Source of the DNA: an uncultured Oscillospiraceae bacterium
Lineage (GTDB): Bacteria > Bacillota > Clostridia > Christensenellales > CAG-138
Assembly (NCBI GenBank): GCA_964541695.1
Contig: CAZIRB010000007.1
Span: 2,419-50,733 of the forward strand
Length of the DNA stretch: 48,315 bases
Direction: 5' to 3'
Shown here piece after piece: positions 8,949-48,315 of the stretch. Position numbers and translations under genes: made by a program. Position 1 is the stretch's first letter. Every line of letters begins with the position of its first letter. The notes beneath the pieces were generated by a model. The model ran no database searches, was not told where the DNA came from, and worked only from the letters and a program-made list of their open reading frames with translations.

Positions 8949-9063
8949 CAGCGCGGCATGCATTTTTCGCCGAATTCCAAAATATATTCATGCCCGAAGA
9001 AATATTTTTAGCCTCAATAGGCCCTGCAAACCCGATGTAAATGAAATACAATCGTGAAAAATC

Positions 9064-9091
9064 TTGCATTGTCCGTCCCGAATGATAAAAT
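9064..9091 (+). promoter_or_regulatory. Candidate hppA promoter
   Basis: TTGCAT (9064-9069), 16-nt spacer, TGA-TAAAAT extended -10 (TAAAAT 9086-9091). Confidence 0.5.
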
Positions 9092-9153
9092 ATAGTTACG
9101 CGCGTTTGACAAACCTGTGTCGGACGCAGCTTTTCTCAAGTTGGAGGATGATT

Positions 9154-11244
9154 ATGCAACCAACGCTTTCGGCATTCTACGGTCTGTCATTTCTCGTCGT
9201 GCTGCTGGCATTTCTCTTCGCGTTCTATCTGTATCTCTGGGTCAAGAAGCAGCCTGCCGGCAACGAGAAGATCGAGCGCATCTCCGCGCTGATCAAGAGC
9301 GGCGCAAACGCGTTTTTGCGCCGGGAGTACCAGGTTCTGGCCAGGTTCGCATCGATTGCCGCCCTGGTGATCCTCGTGCTGCTGCCAAGCCCGATCTGGA
9401 AGAGCAACCCGCTTGAAAACGTCGTGATGGCCGTCGCCTACCTGTGCGGCACGATCTTCTCGGCGCTCGCGGGCAAAATCGGCATCGTCGTGGCCACGAT
9501 CGCCAACGGCCGCTCCGCGGAGGGCGCGCGCCACGGCATCCGCCCCTCGTTCTTGACCGGTTTCCGCGGCGGCTCGGTCATGGGCCTCGCCGTCGTCGGC
9601 GCGAGCCTGCTCGGCGTCGCCGCCGTGCTCGCCGTCACGAAGAACACGACCGCGCTGCTCGGCTTCTCGTTCGGCGCAAGCTCGCTCGCTCTGTTTGCCA
9701 AGGCCGGCGGCGGCATCTTCACAAAGACCGCCGACATCTCCGCGGACCTGGTCGGCAAGGTTGAGCTCGGCATTCCCGAGGACGACCCCAGAAACCCCGC
9801 CGTCATCGCGGACAACGTCGGCGACAACGTCGGCGACGTCGCCGGCATGGGCGCGGACCTGTTCGATTCCAACGTCGCCTCGATGGCCGCCGCGCTCGTC
9901 ATGGCCGCGGGCCTCGACCGCATCGGCGGGCACGCGTTCAACACGATGATGGTGTTCTGCTACGCCGCGCTCGGCCTGCTCTCGTCCATCATCGGCATCG
10001 CGACCGCGCGCATCGGCAAGGACGGCAACCCCACGCGCGCGCTCAACGCCTCGACCTACGTCACCACCGCCGTGTTCCTCGCGCTCACCGCGGGCGCGAC
10101 GGCGCTGTTTGCCGGCTTCCAGTGGCGCATCTGGGCGGCCTCCGCGGTCGGCCTGCTCGTCGGCGTCATCATTGGCCTTGCCACCGACTACTTCACCGAC
10201 GACTCGAAGCCCATCGTCAAGAACGTCGCCCGCGCCTCCAAGTCCGGCCCGGCGTTCACAATCCTCTCCGGCTTCTCGTACGGCCTGCTCTCGGCGCTGC
10301 CCGCGATGATCGGCATCGCGACCTCGGCGCTATTGGCCTATAAGATCTGCGCGCCGCTCGGCGACGGCTACGCGATGTTCGGCATCTCGATGGCCGCCGT
10401 CGGCATGCTCTCGATCGTCGGCATGATCATCTCGAACGACGCGTACGGCCCCATCGTCGACAACGCGCGCGGCCTCGTCGAGATGGGCGACCTCGGCGAA
10501 AAAGCGCTCGAGATCACCGACTCGCTCGACAGCGCCGGCAACACCGTCAAGGCCGTCACGAAGGGCTTTGCCATCGGCGCGGCGGGCCTGACCGTCATCA
10601 GCCTGCTCGGCGCGTACATGAGCGAGGTCAACGACGCGGCCGTCGCCCTCGGCAAGCCGCTGCTCACGGGCTTTGACATCATGAACCCGACCGTGTTCTT
10701 CGGCATACTGATCGGCGCCGCGATTCCCGCCGTGTTCTCCGCTATGCTGATGCTCGGCGTCGACCGCAACGCGCAGCGCATGGTCGCCGAGATCCACAGG
10801 CAGTTCCGCGAGATCCTCGGCCTCGCCGAAGGCAAGCCGGGCGTCGAGCCGGAGTACGACAAGTGCATCCACATCGCCACGGACGGCGCGCTGCGCGAGC
10901 TGATCCCGGCCGGCCTTGTGGCGATCGTCTCCACACTCGCCGTGGGCTTTATCGGCGGCGTCGACGCCATCGGCGGCTTCTTGCTCGGTAACATCGTCAG
11001 CGGCCTGCTGCTCGCGTTGTTTATGAGCAACGCCGGCGGCCTCTGGGACAACTCCAAGAAGTACGTCGAGGCCGGCAACGAGGGCGGCAAGGGCTCCGAT
11101 ACGCATAAGGCCGCCGTCGTCGGCGACACCGTCGGCGATCCGTTCAAGGACACCGCGGGCCCGTCGATCAATACGCAGATCACCGTCGTCTCGCTCGTGG
11201 CGTCCCTGATGAGCACGCTGTTCCTCACCTGGTCGCTGTTCTAA
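9154..11244 (+). CDS. hppA: Membrane-integral proton-translocating pyrophosphatase, K+-independent-type signature
   Basis: Motifs GGGIFTKTADISADLVGKVE, DNVGDNVGDVAGMGADLF, DTVGDPFKDTAGPS. GNTVKAVTKG carries the Lys/Thr pair associated with K+-independent enzymes. I start at ATG 9154 (GGAGG 7 nt upstream) rather than the ORF-track start at 9064. Confidence 0.93.
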   Translation: MQPTLSAFYGLSFLVVLLAFLFAFYLYLWVKKQPAGNEKIERISALIKSGANAFLRREYQVLARFASIAALVILVLLPSPIWKSNPLENVVMAVAYLCGTIFSALAGKIGIVVATIANGRSAEGARHGIRPSFLTGFRGGSVMGLAVVGASLLGVAAVLAVTKNTTALLGFSFGASSLALFAKAGGGIFTKTADISADLVGKVELGIPEDDPRNPAVIADNVGDNVGDVAGMGADLFDSNVASMAAALVMAAGLDRIGGHAFNTMMVFCYAALGLLSSIIGIATARIGKDGNPTRALNASTYVTTAVFLALTAGATALFAGFQWRIWAASAVGLLVGVIIGLATDYFTDDSKPIVKNVARASKSGPAFTILSGFSYGLLSALPAMIGIATSALLAYKICAPLGDGYAMFGISMAAVGMLSIVGMIISNDAYGPIVDNARGLVEMGDLGEKALEITDSLDSAGNTVKAVTKGFAIGAAGLTVISLLGAYMSEVNDAAVALGKPLLTGFDIMNPTVFFGILIGAAIPAVFSAMLMLGVDRNAQRMVAEIHRQFREILGLAEGKPGVEPEYDKCIHIATDGALRELIPAGLVAIVSTLAVGFIGGVDAIGGFLLGNIVSGLLLALFMSNAGGLWDNSKKYVEAGNEGGKGSDTHKAAVVGDTVGDPFKDTAGPSINTQITVVSLVASLMSTLFLTWSLF

Positions 11245-32990: not shown

Positions 32991-36749
<3,759 letters not shown>

Positions 36750-36870
36750 TTAGGGCTGCACCACGGGGGTTGTCCGTCCGGCGGCCATCCGACGGCCGCG
36801 TAAGGTAGGCCCGGATGCACACGGCGGGGCGCTTGCGCCGCTTCGCTCCCCCGCCCGTCCCGCGCTCAGC

Positions 36871-43322: not shown

Positions 43323-44942
43323 ATGAACCGCCTGGCGAAATGGCTCATCGCGCTCCTGTGCACGGGGCTGTTCGTAGGCGCGTTCGCGCTTGCCGCGCAC
43401 TCGGAGTTTACGCCGCTGCCCGCCGTCGGCGCGCTGGACGAGGCGGAATACGCGGACCTTGTCGCCGCGCAGCGCGAGGTCGACGACCGCGCATGGGCGG
43501 GCGGGCTGTTGATCGGCGGCAAGAAAGCGCCGTTCGACAGCCTGACGAACGCCTACTACGTGCCGGAAACCATGGACTCCCCCGCGTTTTTGGCCGCGCT
43601 GACCTGGTCGGCGCGCGGCTTCACCGCGTATTTCTGCCCGGACGCGCTGCTTAATGATAAACTGACCGCGATCCGCGAGAGCCACGCGTTCCGCCTCGTC
43701 GTGAGCGACGGGCGGCGGTACCACTACGAGACCGTGGTGTTTACCGGCCTGCCCGCCATCACGCTCCGTACGGAATCCGAGCAGTCGTTCGCGCTCGGGG
43801 AGGGCGTGCCGACGGGCGAGCTCTGCTCGTTCGAGCCGGACGAAATGCGCTACAACATCGTCGCATCGCTCGCCACGTTCAGGGAGCGCGGCAACACGAC
43901 GGCGCAGTTTGAGAAAACGCCGCTGCGCGTGACGCTCTATCACCCGAACCGCTCGAAGAACTACGCGTCCCTCGCCGGGCTGCGCGCGGACGACGACTGG
44001 ATATTGAACTCCCTGTACACGGACCGCTCAAAGCTGCGCGACTACCTATGCGCGACGCTTTGGAACGCGGTCACGGAGACGAATCCCGCTTCCGACGTGC
44101 CGGGTACGCGCATGCGGTACGTCGAGGTGTTCATCGACGACGTGTACTTCGGCCTGTACGGGCTGATGGAGCCGATCGGCAAGAAATCGACGAATCTCGA
44201 CACGTCCCGCGACATCCTCTACCAGGCCAAGAGCTTTCTTTTGCTCAAGGAGGACTTTGCCAAAGCGCGCAACACGCTCGGCTTCTTCGCCGTCGAGATC
44301 CAGTACCCCAAGGTTTTTACGGGCCCGGAACTGTGGGACCCGATCACGCGGTACGTCGACAGCTTCACGTGGCATCCGGACAGCTATACGACCGAGCAGC
44401 TTTTGTCGCTCATCGACCTCGCCAACGCGGTCGACCACTCGCTGTTCTATCAGGCGACGGTCTGCACGGATAACTTCTTCCACAACAACTTCTACCTTGC
44501 GCGCGCGCAATCGGACGGCGGCTACCGCTTCATTAAGATTCCGTGGGACATGAACTATTCGTTCGGCGACAAGTGGAACGATCACCAGCGGAACCTGTTC
44601 ACGGAATTTGACGACACGCTCGTTGCGTCCGACGCCTCGATGCCGGACATCAAGCTCCTGCTCCAGCGCGATCCGGCCGGCATGAGCGCGCGGCTCTCGG
44701 CGCGCTGGCTCGAGTTAAGGAATACCGCGCTCTCCGACGAAGCGGTCTTTTCCCTGCTCGACGGGGCGGAACACCTTGTGACGGACAGCGGCGCGATGCT
44801 GCGCGACAACGCGCGCTGGCCGGACGCCGCGGGCAGCGATGAGACGCAGCGCGTACGGGCGTTTGCAAAAGCAAGGCTTGCTTACCTTGACGAATACTAC
44901 CGCGGTCTTGCCGGAGAAAAAGCGGCGGAGGCGTCCCCATGA
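43323..44942 (+). CDS. CotH kinase family protein, N-terminal membrane anchor (paralogue 1)
   Basis: 539 aa. Anchor MNRLAKWLIALLCTGLFVGAFALAA. Blocks LYTDRSKLRDYL, YVEVFIDDVYFGLYGLMEP, NNFYLARAQSDGGYRFIKIPWDMNYSFG. Confidence 0.8.
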   Translation: MNRLAKWLIALLCTGLFVGAFALAAHSEFTPLPAVGALDEAEYADLVAAQREVDDRAWAGGLLIGGKKAPFDSLTNAYYVPETMDSPAFLAALTWSARGFTAYFCPDALLNDKLTAIRESHAFRLVVSDGRRYHYETVVFTGLPAITLRTESEQSFALGEGVPTGELCSFEPDEMRYNIVASLATFRERGNTTAQFEKTPLRVTLYHPNRSKNYASLAGLRADDDWILNSLYTDRSKLRDYLCATLWNAVTETNPASDVPGTRMRYVEVFIDDVYFGLYGLMEPIGKKSTNLDTSRDILYQAKSFLLLKEDFAKARNTLGFFAVEIQYPKVFTGPELWDPITRYVDSFTWHPDSYTTEQLLSLIDLANAVDHSLFYQATVCTDNFFHNNFYLARAQSDGGYRFIKIPWDMNYSFGDKWNDHQRNLFTEFDDTLVASDASMPDIKLLLQRDPAGMSARLSARWLELRNTALSDEAVFSLLDGAEHLVTDSGAMLRDNARWPDAAGSDETQRVRAFAKARLAYLDEYYRGLAGEKAAEASP

Positions 44943-46537
44943 TGATGCGCCGCTGGAAGTTACTCACGCTGTTTTCTGCCGCGCTGCTGGTTGCCGGCGT
45001 GTTCCTGCTTGCGCTGCGCGACGAAACGGCAAATAACCCCGTTTTGATTGCGGACGAGGCGTACTGCAACGGCGTGTACGCCGCCGCGCGCAGGACGCAG
45101 CGGCTAGAGAGCTTCGGACACCTGCTGCAAAACGGCAGCGCCGTGCCGTACGCGGACGGGAAGTATTTTCTCACGTATGGCGGCGGCGCGGACGATCTCT
45201 GCGACGCGCTGAGCTGGTCGATGGACGGCGTGACCGCCCGCTTTATGCCGGACGAGGCGTTCGCGGACTTTGCGGAGGCGCTGCGAACCGCGCACGTGTT
45301 CCACCTGCTCGTCACCGACGGGAACGCGTACTTTACCGAGCGCGTCGCAATCACAAACCTCCCCGTGCTGTCGCTGACCACGGACTGGGAGCTGTCCTAC
45401 CGCACGGGCGGCTCCGACACCGCGGCGCAGCTTTTCCTCAGCGGCACGGCCGACGGGAATACCGCGCCGGTCGAGTCCGTCTCGTCGTTCCGCGTGCGCG
45501 GCGGCTCCTCGTCGCGCTATCCCAAGCACCCGTACCGCGTCACGCTGTACCGCGGCAAAAAGGAACGCAACCCGCTCCCGCTGCTCGGCATGCGTTCAAG
45601 CGACGAGTGGGTGCTGCTGCCGCTGTATACCGACCCGTCGCACGTGCGCGAGGGGGTGGCGCTGGAGCTTTGGAACGATATCGCCGCGACAAACGCGGCC
45701 GACGTGCCCGGGGCGCAGTTTCGCTATCTCGAGATGATCGTCGACGGCGTGTACTGTGGGGTGTACGGCCTCGTCACGCCGGTCGACGAGATCGGCTGCG
45801 GCATCGCGGGCGACCCGGACGCGCGGCTGTATAAGGTGATCGAGTACCTGCCCGACGAAATCACGGAGTCCTATCAAAGCAACCCCGCCGCGCTTGCCGA
45901 AATCGTGGAGCTTAAATACCCGGGAAATTCGGCGGACGAAGCGGATTTTACCCCGATCTGCGACTATATCGACGTGTTCATGACCGGCTTTAAAGCGGCG
46001 ACGGCCGAGCAGCGGCTCGACAGGATCAACCTCTCCAACGCGATCGACCACGCGCTGTTTATCAATTTTTGCGCGGCCGAGGACAACCGCTTTAAGAACG
46101 TGTACTTCCTCTCCCGCGTCGAGACGGACGGCTCGCGGCGCATGACGAAGATCCCGTGGGACCTCAACTACACGTTCGGCCACGGCCACGACGGCAAAAA
46201 GGCGCTGCGCACGACGTTCTTTCCGGAACTGATCACGAGCACGCAGTTTACGCCCGACGTCGCCGCTCTGCTCCGCCAAATGCCGGACAAACTGGGGCCG
46301 TTGCTCAACACGCGATGGTTGGAGCTGCGTAAGGACGTCCTTTCCGAGGAAGCGCTGCTGGAACGCTTTACTGCGGCGATGTCGACGCTGACAAGCGGCG
46401 GGGCCTTTGCCCGCGACGCGGCGCGCTGGCCGGACAGCGAGAGCGGCGCGGATCTTGCCGAGATCGCGCGGTTTGTGCGCGAGCGGCTGCTGTTCCTCGA
46501 CGCGTACTACGCGGACCTGGTCATACGGAAATCCTGA
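44939..46537 (+). CDS. CotH kinase family protein, N-terminal membrane anchor (paralogue 2)
   Basis: 532 aa, collinear with paralogue 1 (LYTDPSHVRE, YLEMIVDGVYCGVYGLVTP, NVYFLSRVETDGSRRMTKIPWDLNYTFG). ATGA overlap with paralogue 1 and GGAGG SD. Confidence 0.8.
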   Translation: MMMRRWKLLTLFSAALLVAGVFLLALRDETANNPVLIADEAYCNGVYAAARRTQRLESFGHLLQNGSAVPYADGKYFLTYGGGADDLCDALSWSMDGVTARFMPDEAFADFAEALRTAHVFHLLVTDGNAYFTERVAITNLPVLSLTTDWELSYRTGGSDTAAQLFLSGTADGNTAPVESVSSFRVRGGSSSRYPKHPYRVTLYRGKKERNPLPLLGMRSSDEWVLLPLYTDPSHVREGVALELWNDIAATNAADVPGAQFRYLEMIVDGVYCGVYGLVTPVDEIGCGIAGDPDARLYKVIEYLPDEITESYQSNPAALAEIVELKYPGNSADEADFTPICDYIDVFMTGFKAATAEQRLDRINLSNAIDHALFINFCAAEDNRFKNVYFLSRVETDGSRRMTKIPWDLNYTFGHGHDGKKALRTTFFPELITSTQFTPDVAALLRQMPDKLGPLLNTRWLELRKDVLSEEALLERFTAAMSTLTSGGAFARDAARWPDSESGADLAEIARFVRERLLFLDAYYADLVIRKS

Positions 46538-46666
46538 TAAAAAACGCATCCCTGGTCGCATTTGCCGTATCGACAAATCTTGCAATCCGATACGGGATGC
46601 TGTATACTCACCTATGAACATTTACATCCGGGTCCGCGGCCGTTCGCCGCGGCGGGAGGACGGCGT

Positions 46667-47344
46667 TTGGAGTATCGTCACGAGTTAAAATATCTGTGCG
46701 ACGACGCGCAGCTTCTGATTCTGCGCGCGCGGCTTGCCCATCTTCTGCGGCGCGACGAGCACCAGACGCGCGCGGAGGGGTATGTGATCCGCTCGCTGTA
46801 TTTCGACGACTTCGACGACGCGTATCTCGAGGCCAACTACCGCGGCTTCGACGACCGCGTCAAGTTCCGCATCCGCGCCTACGAGCGCACGGATAGCGTG
46901 ATCCGGCTCGAAACGAAGTTCAAGTTCCGCGGCATGACGCGCAAGGACTCCTGCGCTTTGACCCGCGGGCAGTACGACGAAATCGCCGCGGGCCGCGTTC
47001 CCCGCTTTTCCAAGGAAATGCCTCAGCCGCTGCGCTATCTGTACACCGAGATGTCGACGTCGCTATTAAAGCCCACGATCCTCGTCGAATACACGCGCAC
47101 GGCGTTCGTCGAGCCGGTCGGCAACGTGCGCGTCACGTTCGACCGCAACATCGCTTCGAGCACGAATGTGGACGCTCTGTTCGACGAAACGCTCCCGCTG
47201 GTGCCGCTTCTGCCGCCGCGCCAGCACATCCTCGAGGTCAAGTACGACGAGCTGATACCCGACTATCTGGTCCAGACGCTGGACCTTGGGAATCTAACGC
47301 AGATTACGTTTTCAAAATACGCCATGTGCCGCAGCCCGTTTTAG
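46667..47344 (+). CDS. VTC domain (polyphosphate polymerase-like, triphosphate tunnel fold) protein
   Basis: 225 aa if started at TTG 46667 (GGGAGGA 5 nt upstream), giving N-terminus (M)EYRHELKY, typical of bacterial VTC-domain proteins. Also RSLYFDD, KFRIRAY, LEVKYD strands. Confidence 0.75.
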   Translation: MEYRHELKYLCDDAQLLILRARLAHLLRRDEHQTRAEGYVIRSLYFDDFDDAYLEANYRGFDDRVKFRIRAYERTDSVIRLETKFKFRGMTRKDSCALTRGQYDEIAAGRVPRFSKEMPQPLRYLYTEMSTSLLKPTILVEYTRTAFVEPVGNVRVTFDRNIASSTNVDALFDETLPLVPLLPPRQHILEVKYDELIPDYLVQTLDLGNLTQITFSKYAMCRSPF

Positions 47345-47368
47345 GGCAGGACGAAGGAGAGAAGCGTT

Positions 47369-48055
47369 ATGGACAAAATCGATAAGCTGATTGAGGAGAT
47401 CCGCGAGGCGATGTACATCGCGTTCACGCAGAGCGAGCTAAGGACCAGCACGATCATCATCTCGATGCTGATCACGATCGTTCTGTCCGTGTACATATTC
47501 TTCATCTACCGGATCGCGAACAAGACCGGCTTCTATTCAAAGAACTTCAACAAGACCGTCGCGATCATGGGCATCGTCACCGGCGGCATCGTGCTGTCGA
47601 TGCAGACGAGCGTGTTCATCTCGCTCGGCATGGTCGGCGCGCTGTCCATCGTGCGCTTCCGCAACGTGGTCAAGGACCCGTTCGACCTGCTGTTTCTGTT
47701 CTGGTCGATCAGCACCGGCATCATCTGCGGCACGGGGCTGTACAAGGTCGCGTTCCTGCTCGCGCTCGTCGTGACCGCGGCGATCTTTTTGCTGGAGTTT
47801 GTCACGCTGCCCAAGGCGCCCGCGCTGCTCGTCGTCAACTCGACGAATAAAGGCGTCGAAAACGCGCTGATGGCGGTCGTGCAGAAGTATTCCAAATATT
47901 ACCGCGTCAAGTCGCGCAACCTGACCGCAAACAGCCTCGATATGATCATCGAGGTGCGGCCGGCCAAGGAGCAGGAGCTGCTCGCCGAATGCGCCGCGCT
48001 CGACGGCGCGACAAGCGTCGCGCTGCTCGCGCACGACGGCGAACTGCGGGGCTAA
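47369..48055 (+). CDS. DUF4956 domain membrane protein
   Basis: 228 aa, 4-5 TM helices, GMVGALSIVRFRNVVKDPFDL block, C-terminal soluble ~80 aa. AAGGAGAG SD. Confidence 0.78.
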   Translation: MDKIDKLIEEIREAMYIAFTQSELRTSTIIISMLITIVLSVYIFFIYRIANKTGFYSKNFNKTVAIMGIVTGGIVLSMQTSVFISLGMVGALSIVRFRNVVKDPFDLLFLFWSISTGIICGTGLYKVAFLLALVVTAAIFLLEFVTLPKAPALLVVNSTNKGVENALMAVVQKYSKYYRVKSRNLTANSLDMIIEVRPAKEQELLAECAALDGATSVALLAHDGELRG

Positions 48056-48116
48056 GCGGATGTGCTTACGGCGGACGCGGCTGAACACGCTGCGTTCGTT
48101 TTCTTGCGGAGGCGGT

Positions 48117-48315
48117 ATGTATCGGTCTGTTAAGCGCGCGTTCGTCGTGTTTTGCGTTTGCACGCTGCTATTCTCGTTTCTATTCTACATACGCCAGGAG
48201 GATCCCTCGGCAAATCGGATTACGCTTCTGACGCCGGAAGCGTGCGCCGCGCTTGTTGATGCGCAGACGGAAACAAGCGAGGAGCCGTTTCGCGGCGAGT
48301 GCCGGATCGAGGATA
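48117..48315 (+). CDS. Partial ORF, probable third membrane-anchored CotH-type paralogue (N-terminus only)
   Basis: GGAGG SD. MYRSVKRAFVVFCVCTLLFSFLFY anchor followed by a segment resembling the post-anchor region of paralogue 1. Truncated by the window end. Confidence 0.5.
   Translation, partial: MYRSVKRAFVVFCVCTLLFSFLFYIRQEDPSANRITLLTPEACAALVDAQTETSEEPFRGECRIED

Follow-up and report, generated by a model that had tools for sequence, protein, structure and literature searches.

Outward-facing CotH enzymes encoded with a VTC-domain protein and a DUF4956 membrane protein: a possible envelope phosphorylation module in an uncultured clostridial bacterium

Introduction

Why should a bacterium encode side by side several kinase-fold enzymes that face the outside of the cell, a soluble enzyme of the polyphosphate polymerase type and a small membrane protein? 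The question is raised by the 3' end of a 48,315-nt stretch of DNA from an uncultured Oscillospiraceae bacterium (GenBank assembly GCA_964541695.1, contig CAZIRB010000007.1, positions 2,419 to 50,733 of the forward strand), referred to here as the window, where genes for CotH-fold proteins surround a VTC-domain gene and a DUF4956 gene. Bacterial kinases that act outside the cytoplasm have no obvious phosphate donor. Our answer, offered tentatively and held with somewhat less than even confidence, is that the three families form an envelope phosphorylation module in which outward-facing CotH enzymes would receive, from across the membrane, a donor of the polyphosphate type supplied by the VTC and DUF4956 proteins. 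The directly supported parts of this reading are the families, their residues and topology, their linkage and the polysaccharide context; synthesis, export, donor use and acceptor are the parts that we infer.

The trio, described in the original prediction from the letters of the window, is not new to the literature. It has already been published, with mutant phenotypes, as an accessory set of Gram-positive pel operons comprising CotH, a 'polyphosphate polymerase' and DUF4956 (Whitfield et al. 2020, 10.1101/768473; mBio 2025, PMC12345266), and it is present in a second published locus, NELoc-2. The trio of Streptococcus intermedius consists of SIR_1594, SIR_1593 and SIR_1592 (10.1101/768473; PMC12345266). 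The module also occurs in loci of pathogens, such as the S. intermedius pel operon and NELoc-2 of Clostridium perfringens. One published claim confines the trio to pel loci (PMC12345266), a claim contradicted by the survey of 80 loci described below. The trio is a self-contained unit rather than a pel accessory, and is plugged into several surface-polysaccharide systems; the instance in the window stands alone after ecf-truA-tadA and has an enlarged set of CotH genes.

Linkage of the three families

The module is common, and frequent in gut and rumen Clostridia. Its carriers include Gram-negative species, Bacteroides thetaiotaomicron (BT3498-99; PMC10434189) among them. A scan for DUF4956 among representative species genomes, with one genome per species, matched at least 600 stretches, of which at least 584 were confirmed; 80 loci were kept for neighbourhood counts, made with profiles built in this analysis. 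VTC adjoins DUF4956 in 77 of the 80. The figure for CotH depended on the breadth of the profile: a narrow one of 8 sequences detected the family in 57/80 loci, Pfam revealed divergent CotH domains in the upstream open reading frames (ORFs) of loci that had seemed to lack it, and a broader profile raised the count to 75/80. At least two of the five remaining loci (L024 and L031) are interrupted by contig ends. CotH-VTC-DUF4956 is the arrangement seen most often, and others occur with the families always adjacent. This linkage is far beyond chance, and the co-occurrence supposed in the original prediction is borne out.

The VTC-DUF4956 pair is the core of the module, and an outward-facing CotH protein is its near-obligate partner. 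The gap between the VTC and DUF4956 genes, as projected, has a median of 5 nt, with frequent overlap of the two genes, and in most relatives they are translationally coupled. The only full-length exceptions to the pairing are two loci (L037 and L041; Table 1) in which CotH is followed directly by DUF4956 and no VTC gene was detected in the locus. A Christensenellaceae metagenome-assembled genome (OY762278.1) carries the full CotH-VTC-DUF4956 trio twice, the two sets running in opposite directions at a distance of about 3 kb (L012, on the same chromosome as L014). A PspA/IM30 gene and two unannotated ORFs lie between these trios.

Genes of the GT2, Bac_transf and LytR_cpsA_psr families lie no more than 8 kb from the trio in 25 of the 80 loci. 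On plasmid pNP95 of Pseudobutyrivibrio xylanivorans (L093), the trio stands in the middle of an exopolysaccharide cluster that includes GT61, GT2 and GT4 genes, acyltransferases, pyruvyl transferases and a GH99-like gene. In NELoc-2 (CP4_0460-0468; PMC2879425) and on a Planococcus maritimus plasmid (NZ_CP059541.1, L094), a VTC gene is followed by genes for a membrane protein of about 225 aa and then for a CotH protein. These two clusters resemble the window to that point and then, unlike it, go on with a hypothetical protein of about 690 aa (689 aa in Planococcus), a HEAT-repeat protein and a chitin-synthase-like GT2. The NELoc-2 membrane protein had been labelled 'tubulin/FtsZ GTPase' (PMC2879425). 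At eight of the 80 loci the trio adjoins a gene, mostly divergent, for a purple-acid-phosphatase-like metallophosphoesterase whose lipoprotein signal has an L-x-G-C lipobox. Such a lipoprotein could act on the same chemistry at the outer face of the membrane, and these neighbours fit phosphate chemistry there.

Arrangement of the module in the window

The gene positions given in the original prediction, the ATGA overlap between the first two CotH genes and the interruption of the third by the window end all agree with the ORF list and translations (Table 1). The VTC gene starts at a TTG codon preceded by a GGGAGGA ribosome-binding site, giving a protein that begins M-EYRHELKY, and its homologues have the same length as the window protein. 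At least three CotH genes flank the VTC-DUF4956 pair here, and four do so in a 96%-related genome (L011), where the order is truA-tadA-CotH-CotH-VTC-DUF4956-CotH-CotH before the contig stops. Continuation of the cluster past the window end, as had been proposed, is supported by two full CotH genes in that genome; one Pfam-CotH protein encoded there, of 537 aa, shares 80% identity at its N-terminus with the 66-aa fragment of CotH-C. In a more distant relative, four CotH genes precede the pair. Rfam gave no match in the window, and NCBIfam none for any of the four proteins.

The window module resembles the pel-operon trio in having the three families adjacent on one strand, as 75-77 of the 80 loci do, most commonly in the order CotH, VTC, DUF4956, and in pairing a secreted or anchored CotH with a cytoplasmic VTC protein and a membrane protein that bears a cytoplasmic ACT-like tail. 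It differs in not lying directly downstream of pelDEADAFG, its upstream neighbours being ecfA/A'/T, truA and tadA instead; in the three to four CotH genes that flank the pair, against a single CotH in pel; and in having neither the FN3 tail nor the DUF4832 hydrolase.

The VTC protein

All three family assignments of the original prediction stand, that of DUF4956 by way of its relatives (see below). Pfam VTC (PF09359) matches the window protein at 1.2e-35 (123.6 bits, threshold 23), and the match extends from position 2 to position 230 of the 235 in the profile. A single-sequence search against PDB sequences gave no match and a profile was needed; the VTC profile picks up yeast Vtc4 (3g3q, E 2e-6), and also 8i6v. 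Vtc4 residues K200, R264, R266, K281, R361 and R373 align to K8, R68, R70, K84, R144 and R155, all invariant among 24 sequences. The basic residues of the tunnel, on which the original prediction partly turned, are accordingly retained wherever the alignment extends. The first strand reads R-x-E-x-K, against R-x-T-x-K in Vtc4. In CYTH enzymes it is E-x-E-x-K; at the position of the first Glu the VTC protein, like Vtc4, has Arg, and the middle Glu is retained.

The protein has no extra domain and no hydrophobic segment, and since it lacks the latter it should be cytoplasmic. Hothorn et al. (2009) reportedly identified further catalytic residues towards the C-terminus of Vtc4, namely E426, S457 and K458. 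The C-terminal part of the window protein includes invariant LEVK (E190, K192) and SK (S216, K217) motifs, which are only suggestive.

Like the yeast VTC complex (3g3q, 8i6v), the module has a tunnel domain with six invariant basic residues and joins the enzyme to a partner in the membrane. Unlike the yeast complex, it has no SPX domain, its catalytic domain is unfused to a membrane domain, and its partner is an MgtC-like protein with five transmembrane (TM) helices rather than a 3-TM domain of the Vtc1 type. The target side here would be the cell exterior and not the vacuole.

The CotH proteins

Pfam CotH (PF08757) matches CotH-A at 3.9e-39 and CotH-B at 6.7e-34 (135.5 and 118.3 bits, threshold 23.8). 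An AlphaFold2 (AF2) model of CotH-A (predicted local distance difference test, pLDDT, 88) matched the Bacillus cereus CotH kinase 5jda in Foldseek (E 2.7e-16, TMt 0.75). A single-sequence search with CotH-A against PDB sequences found nothing, and here too a profile was needed: built from the CotH proteins, it found B. cereus CotH 5jd9, whose D224, N229 and D247 align with D383, N388 and D409 of CotH-A. The corresponding B. subtilis residues, numbered from PMC7821199 together with the 5jd9 alignment, are D228 and D251, the catalytic and metal-binding aspartates, mutants of which are inactive (PMC7821199); the spacing of 23 residues is the same in both species.

The homologue search identified at least 32 CotH proteins. 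D383, N388 and D409 are invariant in 21 sequences; they are kept in all four paralogues of the 96%-related genome. Comparison with the Bacillus enzymes, which the original prediction had left as a check, thus finds the equivalents of D228 and D251 without variation. The worry raised there over a WD-x-N motif in place of a second Asp falls away, the motif touching only the second, non-catalytic Asp. Both DNRFKN and PWD are present in CotH-B. The idea that paralogues C and D had lost their active site was considered and rejected, as the alignment shows DHRFRN and PYD/PFD retained. The catalytic core of the CotH proteins is intact, and their Ser/Thr kinase activity is a prediction.

The CotH paralogues are mutually 31-35% identical (CotH-A and CotH-B 35%), and orthologues of CotH-A and CotH-B in the more distant relative share 55% and 45% identity with them, which makes the duplications old. 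Paralogues C and D, with 68% identity between them, split recently.

Each protein has a single hydrophobic segment, near its N-terminus (residues 7-25 in CotH-A, 8-26 in CotH-B and 7-25 in CotH-C). The flank before the helix carries a charge of +2/+3 (R3 and K6 in CotH-A), and the flank after it is net negative in CotH-A and CotH-B and neutral in the CotH-C fragment; from these charges the catalytic domain should lie outside the cell (N-in/C-out). An N-terminal hydrophobic segment is present in 77 of 80 module-linked CotH ORFs, the other three being interrupted by contig ends. Some CotH relatives carry Fn3_assoc, CHB_HEX_C or LTD modules, which are of extracellular type, and streptococcal homologues have been found in secretomes (PMC12345266). 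The outward orientation claimed in the original prediction holds up on all of these grounds.

The window proteins share with Bacillus CotH (5jd9/5jda) the fold and the catalytic Asp, the Asn and the metal-binding Asp. They differ from it in sequence (about 16% identity), in an added N-terminal signal anchor and beta-rich region of about 150 aa, in facing outward, and in being linked to VTC-DUF4956 rather than to cotB/cotG.

The DUF4956 protein

On its own, the window protein scores slightly below the gathering threshold of Pfam DUF4956 (PF16316; 4.9e-07, 30.1 bits against 30.6). The profile is matched by 16/16 aligned relatives (best 1.1e-12), and an identical database protein bears a precomputed PF16316 label. 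A weak match to MgtC (PF02308) appears in 15 of the 16 relatives (best E 3e-4); the window protein reaches 13.1 bits against a threshold of 31.4. By these scores DUF4956 is a distant relative of MgtC and not a member of that family, and the authors of the S. intermedius study made the same MgtC assignment (PMC12345266).

In the AF2 model (pLDDT 78) an N-terminal helix precedes the five TM helices, and the tail is beta-alpha-beta-beta-alpha-beta. In Foldseek the tail alone was matched, to ACT, NikR and similar small domains. Of the earlier description, a protein of 4-5 TM helices with a soluble C-terminal domain, the soluble part stands and can be called ACT-like, and in the model the helices number five. 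Loop charges place the tail and the 98-103 loop in the cytoplasm. Among 112 representatives, 24-48% identical to the window protein, R96, R98 and G117 are 100% conserved and K102, D106 and W112 99%. Together these residues extend over TM3, a cytoplasmic loop and TM4, and they include the invariant motif R-x-R-x3-K-x3-D, which faces the cytoplasm. The family comprises about 6,440 clusters at 50% identity. No fusion to VTC or CotH was seen among the best 150 of these, nearly all of which are about 225 aa long or shorter fragments.

Salmonella MgtC (MgtC/SapB) has the same succession of a five-helix membrane domain and a cytoplasmic ACT-like domain. What sets DUF4956 apart is its own R-x-R-x3-K-x3-D motif and a near-constant VTC partner gene. 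Work on MgtC links it to the homeostasis of phosphate and ATP (PMC7980370).

Models for the function of the module

A membrane-spanning process best explains why a tunnel enzyme of the cytoplasm should be encoded together with a membrane protein and a kinase that faces outward. In the envelope phosphorylation module that we favour, the VTC protein, working at the inner face of the membrane, would use ATP to build a phosphoanhydride chain, polyphosphate. A DUF4956 assembly, probably an oligomer, would dock the VTC protein and pass the chain outward, and the CotH enzymes would take it as phosphoryl (or polyphosphoryl) donor. Acceptors may be surface glycopolymers or matrix components, and diverged CotH paralogues could serve different ones. 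The polysaccharide genes near the trio in other genomes speak for this reading, as do the changes in Pel level and aggregation that follow deletion of CotH or DUF4956 in S. intermedius (PMC12345266). The idea that polyphosphate is exported is plausible. Its fuller form we regard as doubtful: bacteria would have a VTC-type polyphosphate synthase-translocon of their own, with an MgtC-like protein in the place of Vtc1-type subunits, and it would feed outward CotH-fold enzymes. If true, it would be a polyphosphate route independent of polyphosphate kinase (PPK) and the first extracytoplasmic phosphorylation system driven by polyphosphate, and it would give a biochemical role to the MgtC-like fold. 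To our knowledge, that fold has no known biochemistry.

Several observations weigh against this reading, and the chief arguments against a simple pipeline come from S. intermedius and from the kinship with MgtC. In S. intermedius, deletion of CotH lowered Pel and deletion of DUF4956 raised it, and both cut aggregation in sputum medium, while a strain deleted for the VTC gene retained aggregation and Pel production (PMC12345266). Since the VTC deletion was without phenotype and the other two had opposite ones, VTC is not strictly required for CotH function in that organism. The members of the MgtC group that have been studied work by contacting other proteins and are not known to transport anything (PMC7980370; PMC12345266). 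No VTC-complex chain stood among the 50 Foldseek matches listed for the DUF4956 model, and homology of DUF4956 to the yeast Vtc1/3/4 channel was rejected on that account; the likeness to the VTC synthase/translocase put forward in the original prediction survives for the tunnel domain, and for the membrane partner it is an analogy only. A profile of the C-terminal third of the VTC protein found no match in the PDB, and none of the tools aligned Vtc4 E426 and K458. Every block that the CotH proteins have in common with the B. cereus enzyme bound to AMP is retained, so CotH may simply use ATP. No polysaccharide genes adjoin the module in the window, and the literature searched held no biochemical test of any bacterial VTC-domain or DUF4956 protein.

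There are rival readings. Polyphosphate might stay inside the cell, with DUF4956 as an MgtC-like tether or regulator acting through its ACT-like ligand-binding domain and the CotH enzymes merely co-regulated, their donor coming from elsewhere (for example, released ATP). The authors of the S. intermedius work propose that polyphosphate remains cytoplasmic, and their three deletions differ in phenotype (PMC12345266); MgtC affects phosphate assimilation via other proteins (PMC7980370), and the weak MgtC matches, the ACT-like tail and the conserved nucleotide-site blocks of CotH all agree with such an arrangement. It offers no reason, however, for an outward kinase beside a cytoplasmic polymerase in 75/80 loci of varied order and constant adjacency, and it leaves the phosphodonor of an extracytoplasmic kinase unexplained. 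We consider it the main rival, though an unlikely one. Distinctly less probable is the proposal that polyphosphate is the product: VTC-DUF4956 would extrude the chain, and the CotH enzymes would ligate or anchor it to wall polymers, exopolysaccharide or proteins, giving a teichoic-acid-like anionic layer for which the paralogues pick different anchors. This proposal draws on the same linkage and topology as the favoured reading. Kinase-fold enzymes catalyse other kinds of transfer (SelO, SidJ, Fam20B), LCP ligases and sugar-phosphate transferases are recurrent neighbours of the trio, and the adjoining lipoprotein phosphoesterase could trim chains. Yet a CotH-fold polyphosphate transferase is without precedent, transport by DUF4956 would have to be assumed, and the S. 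intermedius VTC-deletion result (PMC12345266) counts here too.

Two further explanations carry little weight. The trio might serve transmembrane signalling, with CotH ectodomains binding an external ligand, DUF4956 relaying the signal, and a VTC-type enzyme of the triphosphatase rather than the polymerase type making or hydrolysing a cytoplasmic phosphoanhydride signal. Tunnel-fold (TTM/CYTH) enzymes do include hydrolases and cyclases, one relative also matched the CYTH family, and the ACT-like domain suggests ligand control. We nevertheless judge signalling very improbable: the catalytic residues do not vary among the CotH paralogues, which are therefore not pseudokinase sensors; the R-x-E-x-K first strand has Arg at the first-Glu position of CYTH, as in Vtc4; and no linked transcription factor or output domain was seen. 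A spore-coat function like that of Bacillus CotH is suggested by the family name and fold, and the clostridial host lineage may sporulate. It is rejected, its chance being slight indeed: Bacillus CotH proteins have 359-362 aa, to which those of the window add a signal anchor and an N-terminal beta domain, the trio is present in non-sporulating streptococci and bifidobacteria (10.1101/768473), and no sporulation genes lie near the module in the window.

Genomic surroundings

The 43 kb upstream of the module are devoted to housekeeping and anaerobic metabolism, and include NrdD/NrdG, an H+-pyrophosphatase, a xanthine-dehydrogenase-type enzyme, pyruvate:ferredoxin oxidoreductase (PFOR), a nucleoside ABC system, QueT, an ECF module (ecfA/A'/T), truA and tadA. 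None of the Pel families was found in these 43 kb, and no pel genes were found in the related Christensenella-like loci L008, L009 and L012. Only close relatives share the order truA-tadA-cotH. In agreement with the original prediction, no terminator-like site was found on the + strand between tadA and the first cotH gene.

The VTC and DUF4956 genes and the CotH genes downstream of them may have a promoter of their own, since the 96%-related locus shares a sigma-70-like site in the gap 5' of the VTC gene. Both hexamers of this candidate, a pattern match only, are unchanged in that genome. Just 5' of the VTC ribosome-binding site is a 7-bp GC hairpin (CCGCGGC/GCCGCGG), whose stem is kept in the 96%-related genome with a different loop; with no T-run after the stem, it is not a terminator.

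Table 1. Coordinates of the module, of neighbouring features in the window and of loci cited in the text
Feature	Location	Strand	Remarks
CotH-A	window 43323-44942	+	539 aa; predicted N-terminally anchored, outward-facing CotH-fold kinase
CotH-B	window 44939-46537	+	532 aa; CotH-A paralogue; start overlaps CotH-A stop (ATGA)
Promoter candidate, sigma-70-like	window 46580-46608	+	TTGCAA-17-TATACT, in 129-nt gap 5' of VTC gene; consensus scan
GC hairpin	window 46634-46652
VTC-domain protein	window 46667-47344	+	225 aa, TTG start; stand-alone triphosphate-tunnel type
DUF4956 membrane protein	window 47369-48055	+	228 aa; Pfam and AF2 model
CotH-C	window 48117-48315	+	first 66 codons; interrupted by window end
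H+-translocating pyrophosphatase	window 9058-11241
PFOR	window 32991-36698	-
Shadow ORF	window 33273-36803	+	high GC
CotH-VTC-DUF4956, two trios	L012 7590-16687
CotH-DUF4956	L037 5163-7792
CotH-DUF4956	L041 8183-10672
Trio in exopolysaccharide cluster	L093 7227-10366		plasmid pNP95
VTC-DUF4956-CotH-hypothetical-HEAT-GT2	L094 5389-12824		NZ_CP059541.1
Purple-acid-phosphatase-like lipoprotein	L074 5995-7359	-	also L030, L044, L046, L058, L059, L077, L089
CorA	L008 11774-12715
CorA	L009 11767-12708
Cthe_2159-type protein	L060 8329-9228

Neighbours at some other loci deserve mention. In two Christensenella-like genomes a CorA magnesium-channel gene lies directly 3' of the trio, a neighbour worth noting in view of the MgtC-like nature of DUF4956 and the divalent metal that VTC enzymes require. 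In L060 a gene for a Cthe_2159-type carbohydrate-binding protein stands between the VTC gene and a divergent CotH gene, and an ABC exporter follows DUF4956. Within the window itself, the membrane H+-translocating pyrophosphatase (Pfam H_PPase, 1.3e-229), a further membrane enzyme that handles a phosphoanhydride, is encoded 35 kb upstream of the module, to which it has no evident link. The PFOR gene (POR_N, 1.5e-79) is overlapped on the opposite strand by a long shadow ORF.

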